Made by a program: the position numbers and the translations under genes
DNA from: Bacteroidota bacterium
GTDB lineage: Bacteria; Bacteroidota; Bacteroidia; NS11-12g; UBA9320
Direction of reading: 5' to 3'
Length of the DNA: 64,000 nt
Assembly (NCBI GenBank): GCA_002746305.1
Contig: NVWV01000008.1
Location: 125,353 to 189,352, forward strand
Notes under the pieces: generated by a model
The model's input: only the letters and a program-made list of their open reading frames with translations
Database searches by the model: none
What the model was told of the DNA's origin: nothing
In this document: in pieces, positions 27,844 to 43,460 of the stretch
How the letters are laid out: every line of letters begins with the position of its first letter
Position numbering within the stretch: the stretch's first letter is position 1

Positions 27844-29340
27844 TTATCTGCCAAATAAAGAATATACTTTTTTAAGAATGTTATTAAATATTAAATTAAC
27901 ATCTTCAGAAACATTCATTTTCAATATTGCAAACACATATAGACCAAGAGTTAACGCAGGAGGTATGAATAAATTCATCAATTCAGATCCAAATTTTGGC
28001 GAATACTCTAACATAATAAAAATCATTACCCCTAGAACTCCTACTTTAAATAAATCCAAAGTAATTGGATCCAAATTATATTTATACTTGACATAGAAAT
28101 ATTTCAATAAATTGAATGCACTTAGTGATATCAAAGTGGAAATAGCAGCTCCATTAATCCCAAATAAAGGAATAAGCTTAATATTTAAAAAAACATTGAG
28201 AAAAGATAAACCTAATACAAAATAAAAAAAAACAACATACTTCGGAGACATTGAGAGTATTTGACTGTTCAAACCAGACGCCATATCAAGCAATTTAGCA
28301 ACGCCTAAAATCAGTATAACCATTTTTCCTGCCTTAAACTCTGAACCTCTCGGCATCATAGCAAAAAGAGGGTCAATAGCAGCCCATATAACCAAGAAGA
28401 CTCCAAGACCCAATACAAATAAATTGATAGATGATTTACGATATATGATATTTAGTTCATCCATGTTTTTAGATTGCCAATGAGAAGCAATAAGTGGTGT
28501 TGCAATAGCTGCAACAAGGGTAAGTGGTACCATCACGGTATTGGAAATAAACATTGCTACTGAATATATCCCATTATCATAAGTAGATTTTAATGTAGTT
28601 ACCATTACACTATCTATTCGAGTGGCTACCTGACTGCCTATAGACGCAAGAACACCAAAACTGGCAAATTTTAACATTCCCAATAATCTTGGTTTATTCA
28701 GGCTTCTTGTAAATTTAGTGTTAAGACTAATTTTACTGATACTTTTAATATATAAAAAGAAAATAACGATAAGTATTAAGTAGAACAACACTAAAACTAA
28801 ATAAATAATACTAAAATCAAATAGCTTAAAGTAATACCCAAGGCACAAAATGGGCAATATTATTTTTATAAGATTGTTTAAAAAATTGGGTATTGCTATT
28901 CTTTTCAGATTGGCAGAAAAACTACTTGAAATAGAACTAAACGACATAAAAATAGCGATAAGTGGGATAGCATTTAAAGCTTCCTTACTTACCTCCTTAT
29001 CTGTATTAAAAAAATCAAATATTGACTCATGAAACAAATAATACAGGACTATCAATGAAAAACCTGTTAGAATGGGCGGGATATATAAAAAGGTTAAAAA
29101 ACCTGAAACTTCTTTGTTTGAACCATTATACTTTGAAAAAAACTTAGAACTAACTGAGGAGAAACCAAAGAGTAAAAAAGGTAGGATAAGTATTGCAGAT
29201 TGCAACACAAATTGTATTTCCCCAAGTTGTTCAATTTCAAGAGTAAGCGGATAAATTATTATAGTGTTTACAAAACCTAATATTATTGAAAAATAACTTA
29301 CTACACTTGATTTAGCTCCTTGCCTTATAACTACACCCAT
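27844..29340 (-). CDS. polysaccharide biosynthesis protein / Wzx-like flippase (MOP superfamily)
   Basis: 498 aa with ~14 TM, at the head of the glycan operon. Confidence 0.55.
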   Translation of the reverse strand: MGVVIRQGAKSSVVSYFSIILGFVNTIIIYPLTLEIEQLGEIQFVLQSAILILPFLLFGFSSVSSKFFSKYNGSNKEVSGFLTFLYIPPILTGFSLIVLYYLFHESIFDFFNTDKEVSKEALNAIPLIAIFMSFSSISSSFSANLKRIAIPNFLNNLIKIILPILCLGYYFKLFDFSIIYLVLVLFYLILIVIFFLYIKSISKISLNTKFTRSLNKPRLLGMLKFASFGVLASIGSQVATRIDSVMVTTLKSTYDNGIYSVAMFISNTVMVPLTLVAAIATPLIASHWQSKNMDELNIIYRKSSINLFVLGLGVFLVIWAAIDPLFAMMPRGSEFKAGKMVILILGVAKLLDMASGLNSQILSMSPKYVVFFYFVLGLSFLNVFLNIKLIPLFGINGAAISTLISLSAFNLLKYFYVKYKYNLDPITLDLFKVGVLGVMIFIMLEYSPKFGSELMNLFIPPALTLGLYVFAILKMNVSEDVNLIFNNILKKVYSLFGR

Positions 29341-29346
29341 TTGTAT

Positions 29347-30084
29347 TTAAGGTTCTAAATCTAACAGAGCACTACTAATTCCTCCATCTATACTTATTAC
29401 GGAGCCATTTAGATAGCGATTGTTATGAGTTGTAAGCTGTAATACAAATTCAGCAATATGTTCTGGTTTCCCGATAATTTGTGAAGGATGCAGCTCTGCA
29501 AGTTCTGTCAGCAATTCTGGTTTGTTATCAAACCCAGCTTTTAACATTTTTGTACCTACGGCAGCAGGACTAATTGCATTTACAGTTATTTTTCCTTTAA
29601 ATTCTACTGCCAATGATTTTGTCATGCCTACTAGTGCCGACTTTGATGTAGCATATGCAAAGAAATTAGGCTTGGTAAGTTGACTATGTATACTCGCTAT
29701 GTTAACTACTTGACCCTCGTTCGCACAAAGCTGACTATAAAGACTTTTTATTAAAACAAAACCAGCAGATACATTCACATTCATGGTTTTTGTCCATTCT
29801 TCTATGGTGAAATCTTCAAAATCATTAACGATTTGAGTAGCTGCATTGTTTATCAAAATAGATACACTCTCACTTGATATTTCTGAGAATTTGACTTTTC
29901 TGTAAGTCTCATCCGAAACAAATTTATCGAGGTCAACGCTATGATAATTTGAGAAGTATGAATGGGAACATTCCCCTTGTAAATCTGATGCTATGACAAA
30001 GTGATTTGACTCATAGTACGCTTTACAAAGTTCAGACCCTATACCTCCATTTGCCCCAGATATATAAACTTGCTTTTGCTTCAT
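29347..30084 (-). CDS. SDR family oxidoreductase
   Basis: VYISGANGGIGSEL. YATSKSAL (YxxxK). Confidence 0.7.
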   Translation of the reverse strand: MKQKQVYISGANGGIGSELCKAYYESNHFVIASDLQGECSHSYFSNYHSVDLDKFVSDETYRKVKFSEISSESVSILINNAATQIVNDFEDFTIEEWTKTMNVNVSAGFVLIKSLYSQLCANEGQVVNIASIHSQLTKPNFFAYATSKSALVGMTKSLAVEFKGKITVNAISPAAVGTKMLKAGFDNKPELLTELAELHPSQIIGKPEHIAEFVLQLTTHNNRYLNGSVISIDGGISSALLDLEP

Positions 30085-30085
30085 A

Positions 30086-31009
30086 TTATTTAATATCTAA
30101 AAAACCATATAACAAACCAATGGCTTTATAACTTGTTTTATCTACTGCTTCTTTTGTGTTTGACCCATTATGACTTCCAAAAAAGCAGTTGTCCAAATCC
30201 ATCAATTCTGATGATACTGAAAGTGGTTCATTTTCAAAAACATCTAAACCCACACCTCCTATACTTCCTTTTCTTAGACAATCTATAAGTTTTTTTTCAT
30301 CAATCAACGGACCACGAGATACGTTGACAATAATAACTGTGCTCTTAAGTTTATTCAAAATATCAGCGTTTATCAAATGATGAGTAGAGTCATTTAATGC
30401 ACAAGCCAAAAACAAATAATCCAATTCTTCAATTCCTTCTGGAAATTTCTTTACGGGGATTCCAAACTCAGTTTTTGCATTTGGGTCATAGGCAATTATA
30501 TTCATTTCAAATGCTTTTAGTTTGCGACCTATTGCCTTTCCAATATCTCCAAAACCTATTATCCCTACCTTTTTGTATACTGTAGAATTGCCAACTGGTT
30601 TAACCCAATTTCCTTTTCTTACTTCAGAATCTATAATGTGTAGTTTTCTTGTGAGATTGAGCATCATACCTATGGCCACATCAGACACTTCATTGCCAAA
30701 CATACCAGGGGTATTAATAATCGGAATATTAAATTTCTTGCAAGCCTCAAAATCTACATTATCTACTCCTACCCCCCATTTTACAGCAGCTTTAAGATTC
30801 CCATCCACTCCCGCCTTAAAAACTCTTTCTGTGGCAGGATCATCCCCTATAATCCATCCATCCATATCAGGGAGAATCTCTATTAGTTCGTCCTCCGTCA
30901 TTACCTGTAGTACCTGAGGAGCTACAAGCTCAATATTTTTTTCTTCAAACAAATAACGATATGCGTCTATTTGTTTTAACATAGGTGGACAGGTTACTAG
31001 TATTTTCAT
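30086..31009 (-). CDS. D-isomer-specific 2-hydroxyacid dehydrogenase
   Basis: NAD site GIIGFGDIGKAIG. VSRGPLID. Catalytic GSH near the C-terminus. Confidence 0.75.
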   Translation of the reverse strand: MKILVTCPPMLKQIDAYRYLFEEKNIELVAPQVLQVMTEDELIEILPDMDGWIIGDDPATERVFKAGVDGNLKAAVKWGVGVDNVDFEACKKFNIPIINTPGMFGNEVSDVAIGMMLNLTRKLHIIDSEVRKGNWVKPVGNSTVYKKVGIIGFGDIGKAIGRKLKAFEMNIIAYDPNAKTEFGIPVKKFPEGIEELDYLFLACALNDSTHHLINADILNKLKSTVIIVNVSRGPLIDEKKLIDCLRKGSIGGVGLDVFENEPLSVSSELMDLDNCFFGSHNGSNTKEAVDKTSYKAIGLLYGFLDIK

Positions 31010-31701
31010 TTCACTTGACTATTATGAATGGCTTCTGCTATCAGATATTCTTGTTCTGTGTCTATGTCTTGAGCTTCTATCGGCTCTATTTCATGCATCA
31101 TGGGTCTATCTCCTATTCTATTGTGTTTTTGTCGCAGTATTTCTTCTGTAAACAAATAAATGCACGAATTTTCTTCAAACACAGGCGGCAAATCTTGAGT
31201 AGGTAGTAAGATATTTGGATTATGGTTCAAAGGCATCGACAGCTCATTCCATAACCTAGTCTGTAATCTCGTTACACTAAACAAGGAGTCATAAATGGGA
31301 TACTTCCCAAGAAATTTATCAATTGCGATATCTATACTCTCCTTGGTAAGCAAAGGATTGGTACTATGCGTTTGCAAATAAAACTTGGACGGTACTTGAC
31401 TTATGGTATTAAGCAGTACATCATTCATAGGAGTATCCCCAGGTCTAAGATTTTCTGGCCTTTCCAAAATTTTAACTGTTGGGTAATCCGATTTCAACCT
31501 ATCTACAATAGTTTCACTATCAGTGTCTACCACGACAAAGTCTATCTTTTCGCAAGATAAAAGTGTCTGTAGTATATGCTCAAACAACAACTTATCTCCA
31601 AATTTTCTATAATTTTTACCTGGCACCCTTTCCGAAGAATGCTTCATAGGTAGTATGGCTACGATATTATTCATTAAATATTTTTCAATATAGCTCTGCA
31701 A
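31006..31701 (-). CDS. acylneuraminate/Kdo-type cytidylyltransferase (CTP_transf_3 family)
   Basis: N-terminal VAILPMKHSSERVPGKNY parallels the NeuA/KdsB IPARxxSxRxPGKN motif. 4-nt overlap with the downstream dehydrogenase. Confidence 0.6.
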   Translation of the reverse strand: MQSYIEKYLMNNIVAILPMKHSSERVPGKNYRKFGDKLLFEHILQTLLSCEKIDFVVVDTDSETIVDRLKSDYPTVKILERPENLRPGDTPMNDVLLNTISQVPSKFYLQTHSTNPLLTKESIDIAIDKFLGKYPIYDSLFSVTRLQTRLWNELSMPLNHNPNILLPTQDLPPVFEENSCIYLFTEEILRQKHNRIGDRPMMHEIEPIEAQDIDTEQEYLIAEAIHNSQVK

Positions 31702-32306
31702 GGAGCTGCTTCTATTTTATCTAACTTGAGTGGTAAGCAGTATAACTCATACCATCCTTCATCAACATTTGTTAAATTTATTCCCTCTAAAAGAACTACT
31801 TTTTGAAGTAGCAAATTTCTATGTGTATCATTATGCTCAAAAAAACCTTGGATAGACAAATAATCTACTCCTATCAAATCTACATTTCTATCAGCAAGTA
31901 TTTTGGCACCATGCTTATCCAAAGCAACAAATTTTTCCTTAAATCCGTGATTGGGATTTGACCAAAGTAACGAATTAGTAGTTTTAAACAATACTTTTTG
32001 AGCATCCTCTGGAATACTAGATGCCAATTCTTTTGAAATAACACTAGCTGTTTTACAATCTTTTACAAAACATTTACCCACCAATTTACTCAATGGCATA
32101 GTGCTCATATCCTCTCCATTTTCTAAAAAATGTAAAGGAGCATCTACATGAGTACCAAAATGTACATCCATTTCTATTTTAGTAACATTGGCCTCAATGT
32201 CTCCACCTATTTTAAGCATAGGAGCTGTATTATATCCAAAACTATCTGGCCATTTCACCAAATCAGGAGTGATGGATAATGAAATATCTATAAGTTCATT
32301 ATTCAT
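31674..32306 (-). CDS. cyclase-family (kynurenine formamidase-like) metal hydrolase
   Basis: HFGTHVDAPLHF is the cyclase-family signature. Confidence 0.6.
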   Translation of the reverse strand: MNNELIDISLSITPDLVKWPDSFGYNTAPMLKIGGDIEANVTKIEMDVHFGTHVDAPLHFLENGEDMSTMPLSKLVGKCFVKDCKTASVISKELASSIPEDAQKVLFKTTNSLLWSNPNHGFKEKFVALDKHGAKILADRNVDLIGVDYLSIQGFFEHNDTHRNLLLQKVVLLEGINLTNVDEGWYELYCLPLKLDKIEAAPCRAILKNI

Positions 32307-33237
32307 TGTAATCTATAGGTTGTTGATTTAAAGAAGATTTTGCAATCACATTTCTTTTGGGAGGATAATAGTATTTGTTCCGTAGTTTTTCATTTAGGTT
32401 AACCTCTTTTTCCCTATATCCATTATATGTTCCAATAAACTGGTTGTACCTGAACATAAATATTTCTCCAAAAAATTTAGATATCACACGTTCTTCAATC
32501 GCCTGAGATATATCATGAAAAATGTTTATTACCAGAAGACGAGTCATTGTTAGAAAACCAAAAGAAGTGTCTGGATTTATACGTTTCAGTGCTATTGCCT
32601 CACGCATATACCTGTTTCTAATATTTGCAGCTTTTTCTTCATGCACATGTATAATAGTTGCATTACTTTCATACACTAATTTATACCCTTTCACTTGAAT
32701 TTTTTTTGCCCAATCTAAGTCTTCTAAGCCAGTGAGGAGCTCATCAAATGGTTGCTCTTTCCAAAGGCTTGTCCGCACTGCACAATTTGCATTATTACAA
32801 AAAGGTATTTTTTGATTATTGTTAGACTCTTCAGGAAACCACTGCTTAAAAATCTGATGCTCAGAATACTTATTCCTAGAATCTCCACGTTGCTTTCCAT
32901 ATACCAAGGCTACTTCTTTATCCTTTATAAATGGTGCTGCCATTTTGCTCAACCAATCTTCGTAAAGGGGATAAACGTGAGCACTCCCAAACAATAAAAT
33001 ATCTCCAGTAGCTGCTGCACAACCCACATTTAACGCATATCCAAATGAAAAATCCTCTGGCTTTATTTTAATAAGTTTTATATTAAACTTAGAAGCAATA
33101 GCAACAGTAGAATCTGTAGAACCGGAGTCTACGACTATAACTTCATGGTTTTTGTAATCTTGATGCTCTAACCCTGTAAGGAGCTTCCCAATATGCTCCT
33201 CCTCATTAAAGCACCTAATAACAATGGATATTTTCAA
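32299..33237 (-). CDS. glycosyltransferase family 2
   Basis: ISIVIRCFNEEEHI...VIVVDSGSTDST. GT-A fold. Confidence 0.65.
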   Translation of the reverse strand: MKISIVIRCFNEEEHIGKLLTGLEHQDYKNHEVIVVDSGSTDSTVAIASKFNIKLIKIKPEDFSFGYALNVGCAAATGDILLFGSAHVYPLYEDWLSKMAAPFIKDKEVALVYGKQRGDSRNKYSEHQIFKQWFPEESNNNQKIPFCNNANCAVRTSLWKEQPFDELLTGLEDLDWAKKIQVKGYKLVYESNATIIHVHEEKAANIRNRYMREAIALKRINPDTSFGFLTMTRLLVINIFHDISQAIEERVISKFFGEIFMFRYNQFIGTYNGYREKEVNLNEKLRNKYYYPPKRNVIAKSSLNQQPIDYNE

Positions 33238-33254
33238 GAATGCAAATTTAAGAA

Positions 33255-34472: not shown

Positions 34473-35473
34473 TCGTTCGAGATCTTATTCAAGATTTTTT
34501 TCCAAACCTCGTGTTGATTGTATTCCGTTTTTATTCTTTTCTGAATTGCCTGAATGTAAGGCAATTGCTTCTCAACATTATTCATATAATAAATACTTTT
34601 TGAAATATATTCATCTGGGTCCATTTCTAAAACTACTTCATTTTCATTATAAAAATCAAGCACGCCTTCATTATCCACCACACCAAATCTTCCTAATGAG
34701 AATACGGTCCAAAAACGATCCATAATACCTTTTTCTACTTTCCAAGAGGTTGCATGTATAATAGGACATAACCTTGATTTTTCAAGAAACTCAACGTGCT
34801 TACTTACTGAAACGGCACCTACTTTAGTGCCTCTACCCGCTAATATGGTGTTTTCACTCGCATCTAATACTGGTTGAAGATATCTCTCCCATTCCTTAAT
34901 ATTACCCCTAGTTGCTGTGCCCCATTTACTTCCTACAAAGGCTGCATCATATTCAAAACCGTTCATTATCGGCTCAGATTGCATAATCTTATCATAGGAC
35001 AATGTCATCGTCCCCCATGGTATCCAGAAAATTCTATCTGCATGTCTATTCACAATTTCAGATTTAACTGGAAACGTCTCTATATCAGATTTAGCTCCAA
35101 AAGCATAATATCGATATCCACTTTTAGCAAGATAATCCAACTTTTTATACTGAGGCCAATGCCAGTTTTTAAAGAACGTGAGTGGATCATCAGTCCAATC
35201 TCCTTCCGACTCTTTACTCGCATCAAATGAGGTTAATTTTTGGATTATAACACTATCTTTATGAGGCTTATATTTCTCAATCAACTCTATGCTATCAGGA
35301 GCATTCCAACATATAAAAATGGCAGGTTTTTTAAAATTTATTTTAGAAGCATTTATATGTTCTGCTTCATAGCCTAACTCATTAAAAGTAGTGGTCAAGT
35401 AATTCCAAGGCCAAAAATTAGTATGTTTCTTTTTGTAGAATGGTGGAATATAACCTAGGAGATAAACTTTCAT
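34469..35473 (-). CDS. hypothetical protein in glycan operon
   Basis: 334 aa, W-rich, no recognised motif. 4-nt overlap with the upstream gene. Confidence 0.35.
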   Translation of the reverse strand: MKVYLLGYIPPFYKKKHTNFWPWNYLTTTFNELGYEAEHINASKINFKKPAIFICWNAPDSIELIEKYKPHKDSVIIQKLTSFDASKESEGDWTDDPLTFFKNWHWPQYKKLDYLAKSGYRYYAFGAKSDIETFPVKSEIVNRHADRIFWIPWGTMTLSYDKIMQSEPIMNGFEYDAAFVGSKWGTATRGNIKEWERYLQPVLDASENTILAGRGTKVGAVSVSKHVEFLEKSRLCPIIHATSWKVEKGIMDRFWTVFSLGRFGVVDNEGVLDFYNENEVVLEMDPDEYISKSIYYMNNVEKQLPYIQAIQKRIKTEYNQHEVWKKILNKISNE

Positions 35474-36481: not shown

Positions 36482-38974
36482 TTGTTGCAGATTATGACCA
36501 ATACTCAACTCTCTTTATTAAAAAATTATGTAAACATACAATCTGCTAAGAATTGGAGCATTTTACTGCTCATACTATTTTCTTTTACTAGTAAATCAAG
36601 TTTTAGTCAAGTAGATTCTATATTTTGGTTTGCAGCTCCAGAAATCTCAGAACACACTTCTAATTTTGATAAGCCAATAATTATTAGGATCACTACTTTA
36701 GATAAATCAGCTAAAGTAGTCATTACCCAGCCTGCCAACCCTTCTTTTGTTCAAATCACGGTAAACATTCCTGCATCATCAACTAAATCAGTTGATTTAA
36801 CATCATACATTAACAATATAGAAACAAGGCCTTCAAATGAGATTTTGAAGACAGGATTACTTATAAAATCAGACAATTACATCACTGCTTACTACGAGGT
36901 AGCTAGTCAACAATGTAATTGCAACCCTGAGATTTTTAGTTTAAAAGGCGGCAATGCACTAGGTGAATTATTCTATATTCCTACTCAAATGACTTATGAA
37001 AATTCAACTAGGTATTCACCACAAGCTACGAGCTCATTTGACATAGTTTCCACACAAGATAATAACCAAATTACTATCACTCCAAACAAGTCAATAGTTG
37101 GTCATGCTAAAGATATTTCATTTAGCATTACACTAAACAAAGGAGAAACATATTCAGCTGTTGCTACATCAAGATTAGGATCAGGGCATTTAGCAGGGTC
37201 AAAGGTCCAAGCAACCTATCCAATAGCAATTACAGTCAAAGATGATTTACTAGAGGGACTAGGACAGTGCAGAGATGTAGCAGGCGATCAAATAGTTTCA
37301 ATAAATAATATTGGCCTTGAATATATTGCCGTAAAAGGATTTCTCGATGGAAATAGAGAGTTAGCCACAATAGTAGCTACAGAACCCAATACGAAAATTT
37401 TTATAGGTTCCTCAGTTGTACCAAGTGCTATTCTAAATGAGGGCCAGTACTATGAGTTTAATCTTACGCAAAATTCAACTTATATTCGGAGTTCTAAACC
37501 CATATACGTATGGCATACTTCTGGTTTCGGTTGCGAATTAGCTGGAGCGATATTACCTCCTGTCAATTGCACTGGAACATTTTCCACATCAGTGGTCAGG
37601 TCTACACCAGATCAGTTAGGAATAGTACTGTTTACAAGTAAAGCAGGAATCAATTCATTTACAAACAATAGAGGTTTGACAATAAACTCTACAACCTTTA
37701 CATCTGTCCCTGGCACAAATAACCGATGGTATGCTGCGAGGATTGAGCTCACACAATCTCAAATTTCAGCCGGAGAAGTTCTTAATATTTCAAATCCCTC
37801 TCACCTATTTCATTTGGGATTTATAAACGGTGTTGCAGGTTCAGGAACTCGTTATGGCTATTTTTCTGATTATCGAAAAGTAACAGGTACAATTGAAAAT
37901 ATCATTGAGTGTAATCAATCTGAAATAGTGTTACAACACAAAAAGGGGAATTTAGATCAATGGAGTACTGGGAGTACTATTGATTCAATAATGCTCCAAA
38001 AAAGCGGCACATATTGGGTAAATTATACTATAAATAATTGCCCAGCATCTGACACCTTTCACGTGAGCATAACCAAAAACAATAGTCTTAATTTTATTGA
38101 TACAGTTCTTTGTAAAGGGGAAGTCCTAAAGCTTGATTTAACAAATAGCGAATTACTGTTAGACTCAAATAAATTGCAGGTAATAGACAATAAAATAGTT
38201 GCAGAAGGATTCTATTTTAGAACGGTTAAGAATTGTCCCAACGTAGATTCTTTCTACGTCTACCAATCAAAAATTGATTTAGATTTAGGTCCGGATAGCA
38301 CCTTCTGCGACAGCATAGAATTGGTCCTAAGTCTTTCCGACTTTGTCTCATACCAGTGGTCTACGGGTTCCGATTCTTCAAGTACAGTATTAATATCTGA
38401 AGGCACATTCTCAGTAATCGTAGAAGATGAATTCTCTTGTAAAGAGTCAGACACAATCAAAATCATAAAAGGAGTAGTGCCTAAAGTAAACTTGGGTCAG
38501 GACACCACCTTATGTAAAAGTTCAACAGCTTTTCTTGATGCTGGACATTTTGCGAAATATCAATGGAGCAATGGTTCAAATAAAAGATATTCTCCACTAA
38601 ATCAGTTTGGCGAAATTTGGGTTATGGTAACAAATGATGATGGATGCTTAGCTGCTGACACAATATTAATTTCCGAGTCTACCAAGACAAATTTTGATGA
38701 ACTATTAATTCCTAATTCTTTTAGTCCAGACCAAAATAATTTGAACGAGAATTTTCCTTTTTATAAATCAATAATTGAGGTTGAAGATTTTACTTTAAAA
38801 ATTTATAACCTATGGGGTCAACAAATTTTTGAAAGTCATTCCCCCTTAAATAATTGGAATGGCACTTTTCAAAATGAACCATCTGCACTTGGAACATACA
38901 TTTATACAATTAGTTGGAAAGATTGCAGCAATAGAATTAAAAACAAAAAAGGAGCATTCCACTTACTTAGATAA
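36482..38974 (+). CDS. large surface protein with T9SS type-B (gliding-motility-associated, CHU_C) C-terminal domain
   Basis: C-terminal LLIPNSFSPDQNNLNENF...IYNLWGQQIF...WNGTF...GTYIYTISW matches the type-B CTD. Ig-like repeats (DTxLCxG...). Confidence 0.65.
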   Translation: MLQIMTNTQLSLLKNYVNIQSAKNWSILLLILFSFTSKSSFSQVDSIFWFAAPEISEHTSNFDKPIIIRITTLDKSAKVVITQPANPSFVQITVNIPASSTKSVDLTSYINNIETRPSNEILKTGLLIKSDNYITAYYEVASQQCNCNPEIFSLKGGNALGELFYIPTQMTYENSTRYSPQATSSFDIVSTQDNNQITITPNKSIVGHAKDISFSITLNKGETYSAVATSRLGSGHLAGSKVQATYPIAITVKDDLLEGLGQCRDVAGDQIVSINNIGLEYIAVKGFLDGNRELATIVATEPNTKIFIGSSVVPSAILNEGQYYEFNLTQNSTYIRSSKPIYVWHTSGFGCELAGAILPPVNCTGTFSTSVVRSTPDQLGIVLFTSKAGINSFTNNRGLTINSTTFTSVPGTNNRWYAARIELTQSQISAGEVLNISNPSHLFHLGFINGVAGSGTRYGYFSDYRKVTGTIENIIECNQSEIVLQHKKGNLDQWSTGSTIDSIMLQKSGTYWVNYTINNCPASDTFHVSITKNNSLNFIDTVLCKGEVLKLDLTNSELLLDSNKLQVIDNKIVAEGFYFRTVKNCPNVDSFYVYQSKIDLDLGPDSTFCDSIELVLSLSDFVSYQWSTGSDSSSTVLISEGTFSVIVEDEFSCKESDTIKIIKGVVPKVNLGQDTTLCKSSTAFLDAGHFAKYQWSNGSNKRYSPLNQFGEIWVMVTNDDGCLAADTILISESTKTNFDELLIPNSFSPDQNNLNENFPFYKSIIEVEDFTLKIYNLWGQQIFESHSPLNNWNGTFQNEPSALGTYIYTISWKDCSNRIKNKKGAFHLLR

Positions 38975-39131
38975 AACAACTTCTGACATTTATTTAAGAC
39001 TTCACTTTCAAAAATTAACTCCTTGTTTTTAAGTACCTCTTTGATTAAACTAGAGTTATTTAATCATGTATATTTTATTAGCATCCAGAATTAATAATAA
39101 TCATCGTTCCTAAGAATTAAAATATTCAGAA

Positions 39132-39938
39132 CTAAAATAGCTGTGAAAACTTAAGGATTATCCGCTCAAAATATAAACGACTAAGGGACCAAGATCTAAC
39201 TACACCCATTTTAAAGTCTTTAATCGTTAGAAAAGGAAAAACCCTATTGGTTAACCTTGAATTCTTACTACCTGAATACACTTCAAAATCCAGACCATTC
39301 TTTAAGGAAATAGCCATTTTTATCCAAGCCAAAAAATGTCCATCTCCAAATGGTTTACTATACACAGTACCTTTCCCAAAATAATCCGGTCTGAAATGGT
39401 TCAAATCATTGTCTTCTGACGAAACATACTCATTACCAGTTATCTTGACACCCTTAAGTTTTTTCTCTTCATAATTTGCATCACAACCTAGCACAAGGAC
39501 ACGTTTATACCCAAGCAAATAAAGGACCTGCAAACTACATACACTTACATCACCAAAGTACCCCATATCTTCAAAGGAAACATTGGCTTTCATTCCTTTA
39601 ATAAGTTCATTAGTTGTAATAAACGTCACTTTATCAGATTTCACAATGTGTTCTCTTGTAGAAAAACATGAGTGATTCCAGTCTTCTGTACCATCTACAT
39701 CCCTAATAAAAAAACGCTTTATTTTCGAGTGTGTTATTAATCTATTCACATCTTCGTAAATATTCTCTAAAACACGAATATCAATAATCATATAATAGGT
39801 TGGATCAAACCCCCAATCTTCATATGCGATGTAAGCTCTGTTAAATGAAATTGTAATATCATTTTTCAAAGCAGCAACATCTATCTCATTCAAACTAGGG
39901 CCATTACCTATTAAGTAGACCGTTTTATTATTATTCAT
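39132..39938 (-). CDS. CstII-like (GT42) sialyl/nonulosonate transferase family protein
   Basis: N-terminal VYLIGNGPSLNEIDVAALKNDITISFNRAYIAYED parallels C. jejuni Cst-II (IIAGNGPSLKEIDYSRLPNDFDVFRCNQFYFED). Confidence 0.5.
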   Translation of the reverse strand: MNNNKTVYLIGNGPSLNEIDVAALKNDITISFNRAYIAYEDWGFDPTYYMIIDIRVLENIYEDVNRLITHSKIKRFFIRDVDGTEDWNHSCFSTREHIVKSDKVTFITTNELIKGMKANVSFEDMGYFGDVSVCSLQVLYLLGYKRVLVLGCDANYEEKKLKGVKITGNEYVSSEDNDLNHFRPDYFGKGTVYSKPFGDGHFLAWIKMAISLKNGLDFEVYSGSKNSRLTNRVFPFLTIKDFKMGVVRSWSLSRLYFERIILKFSQLF

Positions 39939-39940
39939 CT

Positions 39941-39958
39941 ATTTTCGGACGCGAAAAT
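39941..39958. promoter_or_regulatory. 7-bp inverted repeat attttcg-N4-cgaaaat in the 35-nt divergent intergenic region
   Basis: Read directly. It lies 3 nt from the GT42 start and 16 nt from the GT2 start. Confidence 0.3.
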
Positions 39959-39973
39959 AAATATTATTCACAC

Positions 39974-40894
39974 ATGATTCTAAGTATCATTATATGCACG
40001 TACAATAGAGTAAGGTTACTACCATATTGTATCGACAGTATTTTCAATCAAAACTATGATAAAAACGATATTGAAATAATATTTATAGACAATAATTCTA
40101 CCGATGGGTCCGGAGATTATTTTAAAAATCTAATGGATAAAGACCCTCGGTTTACTTTTAAATATTTCTTGGAAACAAAACAAGGTCTTTCCTATGCTAG
40201 AAATAGAGGGATACAAGAATCTATAGGTAAATATGTCGCTTTTGTGGATGATGATGCTATTATGAAAGAGGATTATTTTCAAAAAATATCAGATTTCATA
40301 TATCAACACCCAAAGTGCCAGGCATTTGGAGGGATAATAAACGTACACTTCGAGTCCACTCCTCCAAGGTGGGAAAACAAATATATTAATACCATGTTTG
40401 GATATTACTACCGTGGTAATGAGTCATTTATCTATAAGAACAGTGACTACCCTAGAGGATCAAATATGATTTTTCTTAAAACACTTTTTGACGAAGTAGG
40501 CATCTTTAATCCCAAACTCGGCAGAATAAAAAGAGGACTACAAGGCAATGAAGAAAAGGACCTATTTCAGCGTATCTATGCAAAAAGACACATCGTAAGA
40601 TATGACCCTAATTTAATAGTAGATCATATTGCACCACCAGAACGCACTGAAATCTCATTTGTAAAGCGTCAAGCTACTGGTACAGGAAATTCTGAAAGAA
40701 TTAGAACACAAGAACTAGGCCTTTTTTATTACATAAAAGCTCTGATCTTAGAAAGTTTAAAATGGATAGCGACCTTTTTATTAGCAATATTGTATTTCTT
40801 TAAACTTACCCCAATGAAGGGTATAATTTTAATTCGTTTTAGGTACTGGATTAGTTCAGGTTTGGTAGGTAAAATAGGTGTTTCTGAAATTTAG
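39974..40894 (+). CDS. glycosyltransferase family 2
   Basis: LSIIICTYNRVRLL...IEIIFIDNNSTDGS...FVDDDA (DxD). Confidence 0.7.
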   Translation: MILSIIICTYNRVRLLPYCIDSIFNQNYDKNDIEIIFIDNNSTDGSGDYFKNLMDKDPRFTFKYFLETKQGLSYARNRGIQESIGKYVAFVDDDAIMKEDYFQKISDFIYQHPKCQAFGGIINVHFESTPPRWENKYINTMFGYYYRGNESFIYKNSDYPRGSNMIFLKTLFDEVGIFNPKLGRIKRGLQGNEEKDLFQRIYAKRHIVRYDPNLIVDHIAPPERTEISFVKRQATGTGNSERIRTQELGLFYYIKALILESLKWIATFLLAILYFFKLTPMKGIILIRFRYWISSGLVGKIGVSEI

Positions 40895-40970
40895 TCATCC
40901 TAATACTTACTAATTCTCTTTGGAAATATCATATTTGTCTTACTTCTTTAAATAATAAATTATTGTAAAA

Positions 40971-43460
40971 ATGAAACTGACATTTAATAAATATAAAAAA
41001 CATTTATTGGCTATTTTAGTATTTGCCGTACTAACTTATGCATATATGCCACCAGTATTAAGCGGGAAAGCAATTCAACAAGGTGATGTAGTTAACTTCA
41101 AAGGGTCTGTCTCTGAAACTGATGCATATTATAAAAAAGAAGGTAAAACTCCGCTCTGGACGAATGCTATTTTTGGAGGAATGCCCACCTATCAAATAAG
41201 CACGAAAGGGCATAGTAACCCTGTAAAGGTGCTTATGAAGCCCTCATTTCATCACCCATTCAACAAATTATTTATTGGCTTGATATGTGCATACATCATG
41301 TTTTTAGCTTTTAAAGTAGAGCATTGGTTGGCTATTATTGGAGCATTTGCATTTACATATACTACAGGAAATCTTATTTTCTTAGAAGCCGGACACAACA
41401 CAAAAATGCAAGCAATTGCATACGCTCCATTGGTCTTAGCCGGACTAAAATTCTTACTAAACAAAAGGTATCTTCTAGGCTCCAATATCCTTGCAGTAGG
41501 GATAGCCCTAGAGCTGGTATCAAATCATATTCAGATATCATTTTACCTAGCTATAATGGTAACGATTTGGATGATAGCCGAATTTATCACACACCTTAAA
41601 AACAAAGACCTCAGTTCCTACTTTAAAGTTGTTGGGATATCCTTGTTGTTAGCCTTGTTGGGCATTGCTATTAGTTCTCCAAATATTCTTTTAACAAAAG
41701 AATATTCAGAATCTACTATTCGTGGCCAGTCAGATTTAACTATTTCTAAGGGAGTCAGCGGAGTGCAGGTTAAAGAAAACAGCGGCAGCGGATTAGACTA
41801 TAACTACGCCTTTCAATGGAGCAATGGCTGGCAGGATGTAATGGCTATTATCATACCAAACTATGCTGGAAGTGGAGGAGTTGTTGACCTTGGTAAAAAT
41901 TCTGCTTTTGAAGGAAAACTAAATAAGAAAGCTATCAAAAATTTTCCGTTTGCATATTGGGGGGAACTTCCATTCACGGTGGGCCCTGTTTACCTTGGTG
42001 CGAGCGTATTTCTTCTTTTTATTCTGGCATTTATCTTTATTCGAGGCCCCATTAGATGGTGGATACTTATAGCTTTTATTTTATCTCTAGTTATGTCAAT
42101 GGGTAAGAATAATTTTGCTTGGTTCAATGATTTCCTATTCAATCACTTTCCACTTTATAATAAATTCAGAGTACCAAGTATGTCACTTACCCTTGGTCAA
42201 TGGTGTGTGCCTCTCCTTGCTATCGTAGGATTATCTCACTTTATAAAGAGTACAGATAAAGAGAGACTTCAAAAGAGTCTTAAATTTTCAGGTATAATAG
42301 TAGGTGCTTTTTTAGTTCTACTTACTTTCATGAGCAGTATGTTTACAGACTTTAGTCATAAAGTGACTGATCCAATAACTGGAAATGTCTTAAAAGATTT
42401 TGATAAAGATATATACGACCAATATAAAATAGAAACCTACTTGCTAGAAGAGGCAAGATCAGACCTTATTCAGTCTGATGGATTAAGATCCTTATTCTTT
42501 GCCGGGACAGTATTTTTGCTGTTATGGTTGTTCATTAAAAATAAAGTTAAAAAAGAGTATTTAATTCTGGGAATTGGTCTTGCTATATTGGTTGATTTAT
42601 GGTCTATTGACAAAAGATACTTAAACAATGAAGATTTTGTAAAGAAAAGAGTCTATGAAAAGAAGGCAACTCCTTCCGCAGCTGATCTAGCCATCCTAAC
42701 AGACACCAGTTATTATCGAGTTTTGGATGTGAGAACTTCTAATGTAATGTCTAATTCAAAGGCAGCATTGTTCCATAAGTCGATAGGAGGTTATCACCCA
42801 GCAAAGCTTAGAAGATACCAAGAACTTTACGATTGGCATATTGTTAATGATATAAGAAACAACAGTTACGAAAATAGTTCTGTTCTCAATATGCTTAATA
42901 CTAAATACATAATTGGGAAAGACCAAAAAGGGGCAGATTTATATAGGATAAATTCAAACAATCTAGGTCATGCGTGGTTTGTAAATAACATTAATACTTT
43001 AAAAAACGCAGATAGTGTAATTCTTGCTTTGGCTACGTTTAATCCAAAGTCTACAGCAATACTTGAAGCAACACAATCTGATGTTTCATCGAAACAGCTA
43101 GAAATTGATAGTTCGGCCTCTATTTCGTTAATAAGTTATCATCCAGATAAAATGATTTACAAATCGAATAGTATTCACTCTGGATTCGCAGTATTTTCAG
43201 AAATCTTTTATAAAGATGGATGGGTAGCTTCAATAAACGGGAATCCTGCTACCATAGAAAATGCCAACTTTGTTTTAAGAGGACTTTCATTACCTAAGGG
43301 AGAAAACGAGATAATCTTTAGTTTTGAGCCGAGAACTTATTCAATTAGTAGAGGTATAATGCTAGGAGGTAATACAATCTTGTATTTACTGCTAATTGGT
43401 TCATTATTCTTTTGGATTAAAAAAGAGTTCTTTACCAAAAGCAAAGAGGCTAGAGCATAG
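40971..43460 (+). CDS. YfhO-like large polytopic membrane protein (putative glycan/glycolipid transferase)
   Basis: 829 aa with a many-TM N-terminal half, a large extracytoplasmic C-terminal domain and a final TM. Confidence 0.45.
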   Translation: MKLTFNKYKKHLLAILVFAVLTYAYMPPVLSGKAIQQGDVVNFKGSVSETDAYYKKEGKTPLWTNAIFGGMPTYQISTKGHSNPVKVLMKPSFHHPFNKLFIGLICAYIMFLAFKVEHWLAIIGAFAFTYTTGNLIFLEAGHNTKMQAIAYAPLVLAGLKFLLNKRYLLGSNILAVGIALELVSNHIQISFYLAIMVTIWMIAEFITHLKNKDLSSYFKVVGISLLLALLGIAISSPNILLTKEYSESTIRGQSDLTISKGVSGVQVKENSGSGLDYNYAFQWSNGWQDVMAIIIPNYAGSGGVVDLGKNSAFEGKLNKKAIKNFPFAYWGELPFTVGPVYLGASVFLLFILAFIFIRGPIRWWILIAFILSLVMSMGKNNFAWFNDFLFNHFPLYNKFRVPSMSLTLGQWCVPLLAIVGLSHFIKSTDKERLQKSLKFSGIIVGAFLVLLTFMSSMFTDFSHKVTDPITGNVLKDFDKDIYDQYKIETYLLEEARSDLIQSDGLRSLFFAGTVFLLLWLFIKNKVKKEYLILGIGLAILVDLWSIDKRYLNNEDFVKKRVYEKKATPSAADLAILTDTSYYRVLDVRTSNVMSNSKAALFHKSIGGYHPAKLRRYQELYDWHIVNDIRNNSYENSSVLNMLNTKYIIGKDQKGADLYRINSNNLGHAWFVNNINTLKNADSVILALATFNPKSTAILEATQSDVSSKQLEIDSSASISLISYHPDKMIYKSNSIHSGFAVFSEIFYKDGWVASINGNPATIENANFVLRGLSLPKGENEIIFSFEPRTYSISRGIMLGGNTILYLLLIGSLFFWIKKEFFTKSKEARA

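Follow-up and report, generated by a model that had tools for sequence, protein, structure and literature searches.

A synthase-less cytidylyltransferase-dehydrogenase cassette in a Bacteroidota surface-glycan locus, and a possible route to a non-canonical CMP-activated keto-sugar

What substrate does a NeuA-family cytidylyltransferase serve when its locus encodes a sialyltransferase-like protein but no synthase for a nonulosonic acid or Kdo? The question is raised by the region 27844-43460 of a 64 kb stretch of DNA from a marine Bacteroidota bacterium (the whole stretch is referred to as the window), in which the original prediction had described twelve tightly coupled genes. All of the gene types that it listed are present, as judged by Pfam and NCBIfam matches, but the region contains 13 ORFs, the one overlooked encoding an IgGFc_binding and CHU_C protein on the plus strand:

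27844-29340, minus strand: Wzx-type (MATE-like) oligosaccharide flippase, last gene of a nine-gene operon (PF01554 MatE, 27.5 bits; TIGR00797)
29347-30084, minus strand: classical SDR oxidoreductase (adh_short_C2, 125 bits)
30086-31009, minus strand: D-isomer 2-hydroxyacid dehydrogenase, PGDH/GhrB-like, here 2HADH (2-Hacid_dh_C, 174 bits)
31006-31674, minus strand: NeuA-family (CTP_transf_3) cytidylyltransferase, here CT (PF02348, 93 bits; the ORF extends to a TTG at 31701)
31674-32306, minus strand: cyclase-family (kynurenine-formamidase-like) metal hydrolase (PF04199, 64.6 bits)
32299-33237, minus strand: soluble GT2 glycosyltransferase, here GT2a (Glycos_transf_2, 87 bits)
33255-34472, minus strand: Pfam-less 405-residue protein of GT-B fold (faint PF04464 (TagB/F) and TIGR04396 matches)
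34469-35473, minus strand: GT-B-like glycosyltransferase (Glyco_trans_1_2, PF13524, 27.1 bits)
35473-36333, minus strand: FkbM-family methyltransferase, first gene of the nine-gene operon (PF05050, 68 bits; TIGR01444, 90.5 bits)
36482-38974, plus strand: T9SS type-B cargo protein of 830 residues, IgGFc_binding and CHU_C (PF17517, 117 bits; PF13585, 52.6 bits; TIGR04131)
39132-39938, minus strand: MptE-like/DUF115 protein, 268 residues, single domain (PF01973, 28.0 bits, cut-off 34.6)
39974-40894, plus strand: GT2 with a C-terminal membrane anchor, here GT2b (Glycos_transf_2, 108.6 bits; hydrophobic segment 254-288)
40971-43460, plus strand: YfhO-like polytopic membrane protein with many transmembrane segments (PF09586, 30.5 bits, cut-off 28.5)

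Tight coupling holds for the nine minus-strand genes that run from 36333 to 27844, which overlap by 1-8 nt or are separated by at most 17 nt, but not for the other four ORFs (the T9SS cargo gene, the MptE-like ORF previously called 'GT42-like', and the GT2b/YfhO pair), whose strands alternate and which are spaced 35-160 nt apart. The 28-nt overlap described earlier is an artefact of the upstream TTG start of the CT ORF; starting from the ATG at 31674 the overlap is 1 nt, and this ATG is the likely start because all homologues are 212-230 residues long and begin there. Housekeeping genes flank this lineage-conserved surface-glycan locus, adk and obg to one side and holB and PSP1 to the other, and its full architecture is reproduced in two further loci, L094 and L095. 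Neither a Wzy polymerase nor an initiating transferase nor Wza/Wzc can be recognised in the region, so that it looks like a locus for an oligosaccharide or side-chain. The T9SS cargo gene sits between the operon and the MptE-like gene, as it does in L095; it is missing from L094, in which the operon begins directly with the MptE-like gene, and its product is probably not a biosynthetic part.

The predicted membership of CT in the NeuA family is borne out by the PF02348 match and by a profile of the CT family, which aligns end-to-end with NeuA structures (mouse, N. meningitidis and others), sugar-binding half included, and takes in the QxTxP, RxQD(L/W)P and DID motifs. With KdsB, in contrast, only the N-terminal ~110 residues, the nucleotide-binding part, can be aligned. 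CT scores 65.6 bits against the PseF model (cut-off 205.7) and about 29 bits against the KdsB models (cut-offs 193-255), and homologues at least 60% identical occur across Bacteroidota, Alphaproteobacteria and other groups. As judged by these sequence comparisons, CT represents an uncharacterised, highly conserved subfamily that is NeuA-like over its full length and matches no known equivalog.

The proposed GT42 transferase stands less simply. By sequence it is not a member of GT42: Pfam PF06002 (GT42/CST-I) gave no match even at E ≤ 10, and the protein scores as MptE-like/DUF115. A phmmer comparison with CstII reached E = 0.045 and was confined to the N-terminal GNGPSL stretch; among the homologues listed, most carry PF01973 and one also carries PF06002. 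The fold tells otherwise. The AF2 model (pLDDT 91.8) has as its top Foldseek matches the Maf protein 5MU5, CstII, ST6GalNAc2, a P. multocida sialyltransferase and ST8SiaIII (GT29 included), and the family profile aligns with the CstII motifs GNGPSL, N31, GxD154 and Y156. The original prediction had held that a DUF115 score would refute it, which is too strict: with fold matches to Maf and CstII and shared CstII motifs, the functional link to CMP-donors survives, and the modelled protein is a candidate transferase for a CMP-activated acid.

The absence of a NeuB/KdsA-type synthase or PseC-type aminotransferase was confirmed. Searches by tblastn with seed proteins found no NeuB/PseI-type synthase, KdsA, PseB-type dehydratase or PseC-type aminotransferase in the 64 kb, and Pfam scans covering the flanking and the larger ORFs gave the same picture. 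These searches were sensitive enough for two NeuB-family seeds of 28% identity to detect each other (E about 1e-17). Collection of CT loci initially yielded 85, of which 45 have a syntenic cassette and 40 have the cytidylyltransferase alone; neither these 85 nor the window gave a single tblastn match to a NeuB-family protein, PseI, HpcH aldolase or KdsA. Within 10 kb of the 45 cassettes no NeuB, KdsA or HpcH condensing enzyme was found, and none of the recurrent neighbour clusters scanned is an aldolase. In two genuine nonulosonic acid (NulO) loci recovered by the same search (L089, L090), the synthase adjoins CT. The occurrence of CT and a sialyltransferase-fold protein with no synthase nearby, in the window and in 45 syntenic loci, favours the earlier suggestion of a non-canonical CMP-activated substrate, without proving it.

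What the original prediction did not pick out is the narrower conserved cassette GT2-cyclase-CT-2HADH-SDR at the core of the locus. This core, GT2a-[cyclase]-CT-2HADH-SDR, is mobile and widely distributed, and we found no published description of it. The 45 cassette loci belong to at least four phyla, being found in Bacteroidota, Alphaproteobacteria, one Anaerolineae MAG and one cyanobacterial MAG. Among complete genomes, Mucilaginibacter sp. X5P1 (NZ_CP183230.1) and M. mallensis (LT629740.1) are examples with the cassette. 2HADH lies directly downstream of CT in all 45, the SDR immediately follows 2HADH in 35, and GT2a (48-82% identity) adjoins CT in 44, making it, and not the MptE-like gene, the partner most regularly found with CT-2HADH. 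The cyclase lies between GT2a and CT in 9 of the initial 85 loci, as well as in L094, L095 and the L092 variant. In Alphaproteobacteria the cassette is at its minimum, GT2a-CT-2HADH only. Two sister variants, L087 and L092, keep CT-2HADH but also encode an HpcH aldolase and a HAD phosphatase, so that 2HADH is there not evidently responsible for forming the keto acid.

The cassette is strongly associated with sialyltransferase-fold MptE-like proteins. Of the 45 cassette loci, 28 have an MptE-like gene in the vicinity, as against none of the 40 CT-alone loci (Fisher p = 2e-11, calculated on an earlier count of 29/45). It belongs to the cassette's gene string in L094, L007, L061, L067 and L081, directly adjacent in all except L094. 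In 14 of the 45, neither this nor the other candidate transferase, the 405-residue protein, lies within 10 kb. The AF2 model of the latter (pLDDT 92.7) is closest by Foldseek to UDP-GlcNAc 2-epimerases and GT-B transferases (TM about 0.53). Its family has an invariant H249-P250, and it is always accompanied by the upstream GT-B gene and a flippase (L008, L091, L092, L093, L094). The GT-B-like protein of the window is 65-66% identical to its counterparts in L092 and L008, and the L092 copy in turn shares 74-76% identity with those of L091 and L093. Of the remaining genes, the flippase has many predicted transmembrane segments and its orthologues follow the SDR in L007 and L008; FkbM genes occur in at least eight cassette loci, directly upstream of CT in the Anaerolineae locus L067.

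Among the cassette partners of CT, the SDR and 2HADH have generic assignments by sequence, every specific NCBIfam model for them scoring below its cut-off. 2HADH, whose gene overlaps that of CT by 4 nt and to which CT is translationally coupled, matches the models for phosphoglycerate dehydrogenase (TIGR01327, 198 bits), glyoxylate reductase (156 bits) and GhrB (147 bits); its best PDB match is 1WWK, with the 2-ketogluconate reductase 9M0T also matched. A precedent within the family is given by GhrB/TkrA, KguD and PdxB, whose substrates are aldonates or aldonate phosphates. The best NCBIfam matches of the SDR are glucose 1-dehydrogenase, FabG and aldose dehydrogenase, and its PDB matches are generic. 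The cyclase-family hydrolase scores 140.7 bits against TIGR03035 (cut-off 223), with 1R61 and kynurenine formamidases as PDB matches; we know of no lactonase in this family. GT2a has no transmembrane segment and best matches TarS (5TZ8/5TZE, E = 3e-15).

Comparison with known systems places the locus near, but not within, several of them. The Campylobacter jejuni LOS sialylation module consists of the GT42 enzyme CstII with NeuA, NeuB and NeuC. The window likewise pairs a NeuA-family CT with a small single-domain transferase of CstII-type fold, the two transferases having in common GNGPSL, the Asn of FxxN, LGYxxxxxxGxD and the following Tyr. However, the window lacks the NeuB synthase and the NeuC epimerase, 2HADH, the SDR and the cyclase-family hydrolase replacing the neu genes, and its transferase, without a PF06002 match, is about 15% identical to CstII. 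Maf proteins (DUF115/PF01973) share the Pfam family of the MptE-like protein at family level and provide its best structural match. According to PMC5420450, they are linked to flagellin glycosylation and thought to use CMP-nonulosonates, Maf1 then being the only candidate Pse transferase. The solved 5MU5 chain has 632 residues, against 268 in the MptE-like protein, whose gene lies in a non-flagellar poly- or oligosaccharide locus without pse or leg genes.

Within the same phylum, the Tannerella forsythia glycan locus comprises wzx together with several glycosyltransferase and methyltransferase genes (PMC6120980, PMC5420450), the text consulted mentioning no polymerase. There, a dedicated transferase adds a CMP-activated acidic sugar; these transferases are GT-B/TagB-like with an HP motif, and the 405-residue protein of the window likewise has faint TagB/F matches and an invariant His-Pro. 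T. forsythia also encodes a dedicated nonulosonic-acid biosynthesis locus (PMC5378307). The window differs in having no synthase, aminotransferase or dehydratase and a CT of a different, uncharacterised subfamily.

Kdo capping uses KdsA, KdsC and KdsB, and WbbB-type terminators put beta-Kdo on ABC-transporter-dependent O-antigens. Here too a CMP-activated 2-keto-acid sugar may be the terminal residue: in L067, Wzm, Wzt (with Wzt_C) and methyltransferases precede CT-2HADH-SDR-MptE, an arrangement consistent with a chain-end cap, and in four more cassette loci with the same Wzt-like cluster the cassette probably also lies beside Wzm/Wzt. The present cassette differs in that CT resembles KdsB only in its nucleotide-binding part, no KdsA is present, and the fold of the candidate transferase is unlike the GT-B-like beta-Kdo transferases. 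Lastly, CsbB (a GtrB-like GT2) and YfhO of Bacillus subtilis and Listeria form an extracytoplasmic glycosylation pair, which the membrane-anchored GT2b directly upstream of a polytopic YfhO-family protein resembles. The present host is, however, a Gram-negative member of the Bacteroidota, and its PF09586 match is C-terminal only and just above threshold. GT2b is likely a polyprenyl-phosphate sugar synthase paired with YfhO, itself a candidate GT-C-type glycosyltransferase; the pair is kept in L094 and L095, and a YfhO homologue (37% identity) lies directly upstream of CT in L092.

Our favoured reading, to which we give a probability of about 0.45, is that the synthase-less cassette makes and CMP-activates an acidic keto-sugar by means of its dehydrogenases, the 2-keto-acid function arising, we infer, from dehydrogenation and not from aldol condensation. 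Against it weigh the generic SDR and 2HADH assignments, the want of a known lactonase in the cyclase family, the lone CT orthologues described below, the aldolase-bearing variants L087 and L092, and the greater constancy of GT2a than of the MptE-like gene, with 14 cassette loci lacking both candidate transferases within 10 kb.

A less probable explanation is ordinary NulO- or Kdo-type decoration, in which Pse, Leg, Neu, Kdn or Kdo comes from a synthase elsewhere in the genome, CT only activates it, and 2HADH, the SDR and the cyclase serve either to modify the sugar or to produce or trim a substituent such as a glyceroyl, lactoyl or hydroxybutyryl group. The full-length likeness of CT to NeuA and the presence of sialyltransferase-fold and GT-B candidates suit it. 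Kdo is, moreover, available in nearly all phyla hosting the cassette. Some 40 orthologous CTs occur singly among housekeeping genes, for the most part in Saprospiraceae, which is what a substrate supplied from another locus would predict; these are 66% identical on average, with no discriminating columns. Either their partners are encoded elsewhere or the substrate is a common metabolite. Against the NulO or Kdo explanation stand the missing synthases in all 45 cassette loci and the window, when genuine NulO loci keep theirs beside CT, and the PseF and KdsB scores far below cut-off. The cassette also has no aminotransferase, acyltransferase or UDP-GlcNAc dehydratase, and CT-2HADH coupling is kept across phyla, even in an Anaerolineae MAG, a group generally thought to lack LPS and Kdo. 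A precedent in favour of such decoration exists in T. forsythia, which caps its protein O-glycan with a modified Pse or Leg (PMC6120980, PMC5420450).

Rather improbable is the activation of a small hydroxy acid, in which CT would act on a non-sugar acid or phosphate such as D-glycerate or 3-phosphoglycerate from a PGDH-like 2HADH, giving a CMP- or CDP-linked donor for phosphodiester-type or aglycone decoration, with the TarS-like GT2a and the TagB/F-like GT-B protein acting as in teichoic-acid-like chemistry. The best scores of 2HADH are indeed against phosphoglycerate dehydrogenase; TarS is the nearest structural relative of GT2a by sequence, and GT2a also weakly matches glucosyl-3-phosphoglycerate synthase; the 405-residue protein has faint PF04464 (CDP-glycerol glycerophosphotransferase) matches and two of its homologues carry that Pfam; and the minimal alphaproteobacterial cassette consists of GT2a-CT-2HADH alone. 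These matches are, however, all weak or generic, and to our knowledge no characterised CTP_transf_3 member activates a phosphate, all of them acting on the anomeric hydroxyl of 2-keto-acid sugars. The NeuA-like sugar-binding half of CT argues the same way, as does the strongest accessory association, with sialyltransferase-fold proteins. That this is an ordinary variable glycan locus in which CT, the dehydrogenases and the MptE-like gene have unrelated roles is very improbable: glycan loci are mosaics, and in the window the MptE-like gene is its own transcription unit beyond the T9SS cargo gene, but order-conserved synteny in 45 loci across phyla, the MptE-like gene's place in five gene strings and its co-occurrence with the cassette all speak against it.

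Under the favoured reading, dehydrogenase-based synthesis, the stepwise chemistry can be put forward as a hypothesis. The SDR would oxidise a free aldose to a lactone, which the optional cyclase-family metal hydrolase would open; lactones also open spontaneously, which fits the hydrolase being dispensable. 2HADH would then oxidise C2 of the aldonate to give a 2-ulosonic acid, the reverse of the reaction of the same-family GhrB/TkrA/KguD-type 2-ketoaldonate reductases, and CT would convert this to CMP-ulosonate. The acceptor would be a lipid-linked oligosaccharide that GT2a and the GT-B enzyme assemble, FkbM methylates and Wzx flips, and transfer to it would fall to the MptE-like enzyme or to the 405-residue protein as a candidate second transferase. 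GT2b and YfhO would probably attach one more sugar at the outer face of the inner membrane. Our best guess for the substrate is therefore an ulosonic acid made by dehydrogenases and not by an aldolase-type synthase, and the cassette would, we infer, supply its hosts with a CMP-activated acidic keto-sugar other than Neu, Pse, Leg or Kdo.

The glycan locus between positions 27844 and 43460 comprises 13 ORFs set between housekeeping genes. Nine of them make up a compact minus-strand string running from 36333 to 27844, separated by gaps of no more than 17 nt or overlapping by 1-8 nt.

Genes of the locus and its flanks
Left flank: adk and obg (housekeeping)
36333 to 27844, minus strand: nine-gene string, as follows
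Gene 1, minus strand: FkbM methyltransferase
Gene 2, minus strand: GT-B-like protein (Glyco_trans_1_2)
Gene 3, 33255-34472, minus strand: 405-aa protein without a Pfam match
Gene 4, minus strand: soluble GT2 glycosyltransferase (GT2a)
Gene 5, minus strand: cyclase-family hydrolase
Gene 6, minus strand: CTP_transf_3 cytidylyltransferase (CT)
Gene 7, minus strand: D-2-hydroxyacid dehydrogenase (2HADH)
Gene 8, minus strand: classical SDR
Gene 9, minus strand: MATE-like Wzx flippase, polytopic, matching MatE and TIGR00797
36482-38974, plus strand: T9SS type-B cargo protein, 830 aa, IgGFc_binding and CHU_C domains
39132-39938, minus strand: MptE-like ORF, 268 aa, first labelled GT42-like
Plus strand: membrane-anchored GT2 glycosyltransferase (GT2b)
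Plus strand, after GT2b: YfhO-like polytopic protein
Right flank: holB, PIG-L deacetylase, ATP-grasp protein and PSP1 (housekeeping)

The original prediction described twelve tightly coupled genes that pair a CstII-like GT42 transferase with a NeuA-family CT in a window with no nonulosonate or Kdo synthase. In substance this stands, with gene number, coupling and one family label corrected. The 830-aa cargo ORF had been left out of the gene list, and a reported 28-nt overlap stems from an upstream TTG, homologues placing the CT start at the ATG at 31674. Wzx, GT2b and the YfhO-like protein are the only membrane proteins encoded in 27844-43460, and no match to Wzy_C, a sugar-transferase or Wza/Wzc was found there. 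Without a Wzy, Wza/Wzc or initiating transferase that can be recognised, the locus looks like an oligosaccharide or side-chain type rather than one for a polymerised O-antigen. GT2b, anchored in the membrane by its C terminus, is encoded ahead of the YfhO-like protein; CsbB and YfhO form an extracytoplasmic glycosylation pair, which these two genes resemble. The whole is reminiscent of Bacteroidota protein O-glycosylation clusters (PMC6120980). A promoter and terminator scan of 27000-44000, using a consensus other than that of Bacteroidota, returned counts no higher than expected from shuffled sequence (70 against 74 and 7 against 8).

The PIG-L-family deacetylase overlaps a Ter-type/PylC-like ATP-grasp ligase (44568-46249), and the pair is kept beside the YfhO end of the locus in one relative (L095, 3880-5525); it may be a further glycan-modification pair, acting by de-N-acetylation and then amide ligation. 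On the other side, 2.5 kb from the locus and past obg and adk, a 427-aa ORF without a Pfam match (24040-25323, minus strand) weakly matches the LA_3751/LA_3752 putative glycosyltransferase family. A HAD hydrolase at 23354-24043 was considered as a missing phosphatase and rejected, being dissimilar to the HAD proteins of the aldolase-type cassettes and lying beyond obg and adk.

The CT matches PF02348 (CTP_transf_3) with 93.2 bits (cut-off 22.6), and falls far below the equivalog cut-off of TIGR03584 PseF (65.6 bits against 205.7) and those of the KdsB models (27-30 bits against 193-255). Positions 3-215 of its family profile align with the NeuA structures 9T4Z, 1QWJ and 1EYR over both the nucleotide-binding and sugar-binding halves, sharing the motifs QxTxP, RxQD(L/W)P and DID; alignment to KdsB is limited to the N-terminal nucleotide-binding part. 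By sequence the CT is thus NeuA-like and belongs to a subfamily outside the assigned equivalogs, whose members are at least 60% identical between Bacteroidota, Alphaproteobacteria and others.

The window encodes no recognisable condensing synthase, epimerase or aminotransferase, as had been noticed at the outset. Searches (tblastn) of the 64 kb with a NeuB-family protein, PseI, KdsA, PseB, PseC and HpcH aldolase as seeds, the KdsA sequence being hand-entered, found nothing, Pfam scans of the remaining larger ORFs likewise detected no such enzyme, and none of the scanned ORFs matched Epimerase_2 or DegT. Two NeuB-family seeds found each other at 28% identity, which gives the search a reasonable reach. 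Among 85 CT loci, none had a NeuB, PseI, KdsA or HpcH homologue detectable by tblastn within 10 kb. In bona fide nonulosonate loci recovered by a plasmid search, the synthase adjoins the CT. One such plasmid, from Enterobacter roggenkampii (NZ_CP058198.1, L089, 10367-11911), encodes a 514-aa NeuB-family protein that starts with a GKGPS motif resembling the one in the MptE/CstII fold. Copies of ISAs1 flank the capsule-export region in which its gene adjoins an inositol-monophosphatase-family gene and a CT with 35% identity to that of the window.

These 85 loci are the best-scoring 80 of 382 matches, obtained by scanning one genome per species, together with five from an exact protein look-up; their ORFs were called crudely, by six-frame translation and greedy selection, and some contigs are short. 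In this sample the CT shows conserved coupling to 2HADH, SDR and GT2a. The 2HADH gene lies directly downstream of the CT in 45 of the 85, SDR follows 2HADH in 35, and a cyclase-family gene sits between GT2a and CT in nine. A GT2a orthologue (48-82% identity) adjoins the CT in 44 of the 45 loci with this cassette, GT2a-(cyclase-family hydrolase)-CT-2HADH-SDR, in which the hydrolase is optional. Bacteria that carry it include members of the Bacteroidota (Pedobacter, Mucilaginibacter, Larkinella, Spirosoma, Arcicella, Limnovirga and some Saprospiraceae), Alphaproteobacteria (Roseibium, Niveispirillum, Azospirillum, Rhizobium, Asaia, Hyphomonadaceae and Hyphomicrobiaceae), one Anaerolineae MAG and one cyanobacterial MAG. 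The recurring clusters of neighbour genes, as far as scanned, comprise WecG/TagA-type, GT2 and GT4 glycosyltransferases, UDP-glucose dehydrogenase, an epimerase, CpsB phosphatase and regulators, with no aldolase among them. Wza-, Wzc-, WbaP- and Wzy-like neighbours were read from sequence in other cassette loci (the first three in Pedobacter, Larkinella and Mucilaginibacter), and Pfam confirms a Wzy_C polymerase in L003 and a CpsB phosphatase in L009.

The cassette is associated with sialyltransferase-fold proteins, and a known synthase is consistently absent nearby. An MptE-superfamily ORF occurs within 10 kb of 28 of the 45 cassette loci, versus none of the 40 loci among the 85 in which the CT lacks cassette partners (Fisher p = 2e-11, from an earlier count of 29/45). 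It lies directly beside the cassette in L007, L061, L067, L070 and L081. GT2a is the more constant partner, and in 14 of the 45 neither candidate transferase, MptE-like or 405-aa, is nearby. Two close relatives reproduce the whole architecture of the window: L094 reads YfhO-GT2b, then MptE-FkbM-GT-B-405aa-GT2a-cyclase-CT-2HADH, without the cargo gene, and L095 has the same order with an IgGFc_binding/CHU_C cargo gene inserted. Most likely, therefore, the MptE-like gene belonged to the operon ancestrally, and the cargo gene arrived by insertion. T9SS type-B (CHU_C) cargo is found in or beside three glycan loci (window 36482-38974; L095 10761-13190; L092 10764-14051), the IgGFc_binding and CHU_C protein being at the same position in L095 and absent from L094.

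Two further loci broaden the picture. The Anaerolineae MAG (DAOTTQ010000060.1, L067, 6252-13177) carries CT-2HADH-SDR-MptE after genes for Wzm, for a Wzt bearing the carbohydrate-binding domain Wzt_C and for methyltransferases. This gene string hints that glycan chains exported by an ABC transporter may be capped, and so terminated, with the activated acid. Four more cassette loci have a similar Wzt-like cluster (c44). A more distant version on Gemmobacter fulvus plasmid p5 (L088, 7135-13843), with a CT 41% identical to the window's, runs MptE-like gene, glycosyltransferase, CT, NAD(P)-dependent oxidoreductase and a 910-aa MptE-like protein, followed by GDP-fucose genes and a sulfotransferase. 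The association of CT with MptE-like proteins thus reaches past the 60%-identity subfamily.

About 40 CT orthologues of the 85, mostly from Saprospiraceae and 60-64% identical to the window CT, stand alone (L011, L014, L019, L022-L025, L027, L028 and L031-L033 among them). Next to them lie what read as housekeeping genes (RdgB/Ham1-, PrmC-, enoyl-CoA hydratase- and ferredoxin-NADP reductase-like), and no dehydrogenase or transferase is nearby. Mean identity is similar among cassette CTs (68%) and between cassette and stand-alone CTs (66%), and no alignment column discriminates the two groups, so that genomic context cannot be used to infer different CT substrates.

The GT42 label of the 268-aa ORF did not hold: it has no match to PF06002 (GT42/CST-I) even at E<=10, and scores 28.0 bits against PF01973 (MptE-like/DUF115), under the cut-off of 34.6. 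With PF01973 its orthologues reach 47.9 bits in L007 and 44.4 bits in L067, most of its listed homologues carry that domain in precomputed annotation, and one distant homologue (P0215) has both PF01973 and PF06002. A phmmer search of PDB sequences matched only CstII (E=0.045), over residues 5-36, which include the N-terminal GNGPSL stretch. An AlphaFold (AF2) model from 46 sequences (pLDDT 91.8, pTM 0.90) was compared with the PDB using Foldseek; ranks 1-15 (TM 0.32-0.54) had as best matches Maf 5MU5, several CstII entries, human ST6GalNAc2, the Pasteurella multocida sialyltransferase, the mammalian sialyltransferase 2WNF and ST8SiaIII. The archaeal MptE kinase, namesake of the Pfam family, appeared no higher than rank 16. 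Model and matches together predict a modified GT-A fold of the sialyltransferase type.

The MptE-like family profile also aligns to residues 2-185 of CstII, whose sequence was hand-entered, two stretches of it being confirmed by phmmer. On this sequence the profile matches GNGPSL, the Asn of FxxN, LGYxxxxxxGxD and the Tyr that follows. The catalytic and CMP-binding residues of CstII are N31, D154, Y156, Y162 and H188; in the alignment to the hand-entered sequence the profile's N33, D153 and Y156 pair with N31, D154 and Y156, and its invariant H181 falls on H184, four residues before the catalytic H188. The ORF is thus not a member of GT42 and is probably a small DUF115-type protein with a predicted sialyltransferase fold. 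Scoring as MAF/DUF115 formally counts against the original prediction, yet the proposed link to CMP-donors survives. Unlike Maf, which has about 600 aa and several domains and belongs to a flagellin-glycosylation context, this protein is a single domain, and its locus holds Wzx, glycosyltransferases and methyltransferases and no flagellar genes.

The 405-aa protein is a second candidate transferase for the CMP-donor. Its model (pLDDT 92.7) has a GT-B fold, the nearest structures being UDP-GlcNAc 2-epimerases and GT-B transferases (TM ~0.53, ~15% identity), and its score against PF02350 is only 12.7 bits. We considered and rejected a hidden UDP-GlcNAc 2-epimerase, given these values and the protein's travelling with a glycosyltransferase and a flippase. 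The candidacy stems from faint TagB/F (PF04464) matches and an invariant His-Pro, as in Tannerella forsythia, where one paper (PMC5420450) describes genetically implicated Pse/Leg transferases as GT-B/TagB-like with an HP motif. The protein is always accompanied by an upstream GT-B gene and a flippase. This conserved trio, of a GT-B protein (Glyco_trans_1_2, 65-76% identical), a Pfam-less GT-B-fold protein of ~420 aa and a Polysacc_synt flippase, stands by itself in housekeeping neighbourhoods of other Bacteroidota (L091, 6976-10744; L093, 406-4174). In the window (GT-B and 405-aa genes, 33255-35473) the trio is split by an insertion of the CT cassette, with the flippase after it and the other two genes before it.

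A sister cassette contains an aldolase. In a Flavobacteriales MAG (JAOABX010000011.1, L092, 1-10753) the order is YfhO-CT-methyltransferase-HpcH/HpaI aldolase-epimerase-cyclase-HAD phosphatase-2HADH-methyltransferase-GT-B-405aa homologue-flippase, and an Acuticoccus plasmid (NZ_CP094833.1, L087, 9210-13662) has HpcH aldolase-CT-PGDH-like-HAD and then an NAD(P)-dependent oxidoreductase. Relative to the first cassette, the sister keeps CT-2HADH and gains a class II HpcH/HpaI aldolase along with a HAD phosphatase and an extended-SDR epimerase; L092 has a cyclase-family gene and two methyltransferases in addition. Identity of the two CTs to the window family, and to one another, is 42-49%. Pairing of CT with 2HADH is thus also found in systems with a condensing enzyme, of the class II pyruvate-aldolase type and not NeuB/KdsA, which suggests that pyruvate aldolases build a family of CMP-activated keto acids. 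As a general idea, non-canonical CMP-activated keto acids gain support from these systems, which show at the same time that 2HADH need not create the keto group.

We infer that what the cassette makes and transfers is an acidic keto-sugar, activated with CMP and other than Neu, Pse, Leg or Kdo, and give a non-canonical CMP-acid formed independently of a synthase, broadly stated, a probability of about 0.45. The scheme that we prefer, a hypothesis, gives every gene a role. SDR would oxidise an aldose to a lactone, whose opening to the aldonate would be spontaneous or catalysed by the optional cyclase-family hydrolase; 2HADH would oxidise the aldonate to a 2-ulosonic acid, the CT would form the CMP-ulosonate, and the MptE-like enzyme or the GT-B 405-aa protein would transfer it to the glycan. 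GhrB/TkrA and KguD are 2-ketoaldonate reductases of the 2HADH family, and the 2HADH step would be the reverse of theirs; the window's 2HADH scores 147 bits against the GhrB model and also matches a 2-ketogluconate reductase structure. NCBIfam gives no specific assignment for SDR or 2HADH, and a PDB search with the SDR returned generic SDRs only. This specific chemistry we consider unlikely to be correct as drawn.

The preferred reading of a non-canonical acid is weakened by the 40 orthologous CTs, among the 85, that stand alone in housekeeping contexts, by GT2a being a more constant partner than the MptE-like gene, and by the 14 of 45 loci without either candidate transferase nearby. Somewhat improbable, in our estimate, is that a canonical sugar is made elsewhere in the genome and tailored by the dehydrogenases; the window and its relatives have no synthase close by, and the bona fide nonulosonate loci keep theirs beside the CT. 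A CMP- or CDP-linked small hydroxy acid such as glycerate, in teichoic-like chemistry, is a poor prospect: PGDH-like, TarS-like and TagF-like similarities favour it, but its support is limited to those three. Chance juxtaposition of CT, dehydrogenases and MptE-like gene, set beside their recurrence across loci, is very improbable.

The system we favour, with its non-canonical acid, would work like known CMP-dependent addition of acidic sugars by a sialyltransferase-fold enzyme; what is new is that the defining synthase is absent and dehydrogenases stand in its place. To our knowledge, CMP-dependent glycosylation with sialic, pseudaminic and legionaminic acids and Kdo all rests on aldolase-type synthases. 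Searches of the literature on CT with 2HADH, DUF115 or HpcH proteins, on MptE-like proteins with glycosyltransferases and on hexulosonic acids found no description of the cassette. Some capsules do contain hexulosonic acids, such as the 4-deoxy-2-hexulosonic acid of E. coli K3, and the same literature yielded no gene link for them. Tentatively, and with the odds against it, the cassette and its aldolase-containing sister (L087, L092) may together represent an unrecognised, phylogenetically widespread route to new CMP-activated ulosonic or ulosaric acids, made by dehydrogenases or class II HpcH aldolases rather than NeuB/KdsA-type synthases and installed by small DUF115-type sialyltransferase-fold enzymes.

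Genome mining for CMP-activated acidic sugars uses NeuB or KdsA as its marker, and a cassette coupling a NeuA-like CT and a sialyltransferase-fold transferase to dehydrogenases would escape it. The cassette may mark an unknown acidic surface sugar on common soil and marine bacteria (Pedobacter, Mucilaginibacter, Larkinella, Saprospiraceae, Roseibium, Niveispirillum and Rhizobium), and several of its hosts are culturable type strains. Hosts that can be cultured include Roseibium suaedae DSM 22153, Niveispirillum irakense DSM 11586, Pedobacter frigiditerrae, M. mallensis and Larkinella spp., and complete genomes with the cassette include those of Mucilaginibacter sp. X5P1 (NZ_CP183230.1), sp. 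Mucisp86 (NZ_CP168503.1), sp. X4EP1 (NZ_CP183229.1), M. mallensis (LT629740.1) and Pararhizobium sp. A13 with its pPspA13b. If the substrate proves to be a canonical sugar made elsewhere, a role for DUF115-type proteins outside flagellin glycosylation and the definition of a new CT subfamily would still be of value. According to a 2012 review, the activated form of some keto-acid sugars, such as Dha, was still unidentified at that time (PMC3355719). If the new route exists, the cassette would offer candidate enzymology for such sugars, and a whole family of acidic terminal sugars on the glycans of environmental bacteria would have been overlooked.
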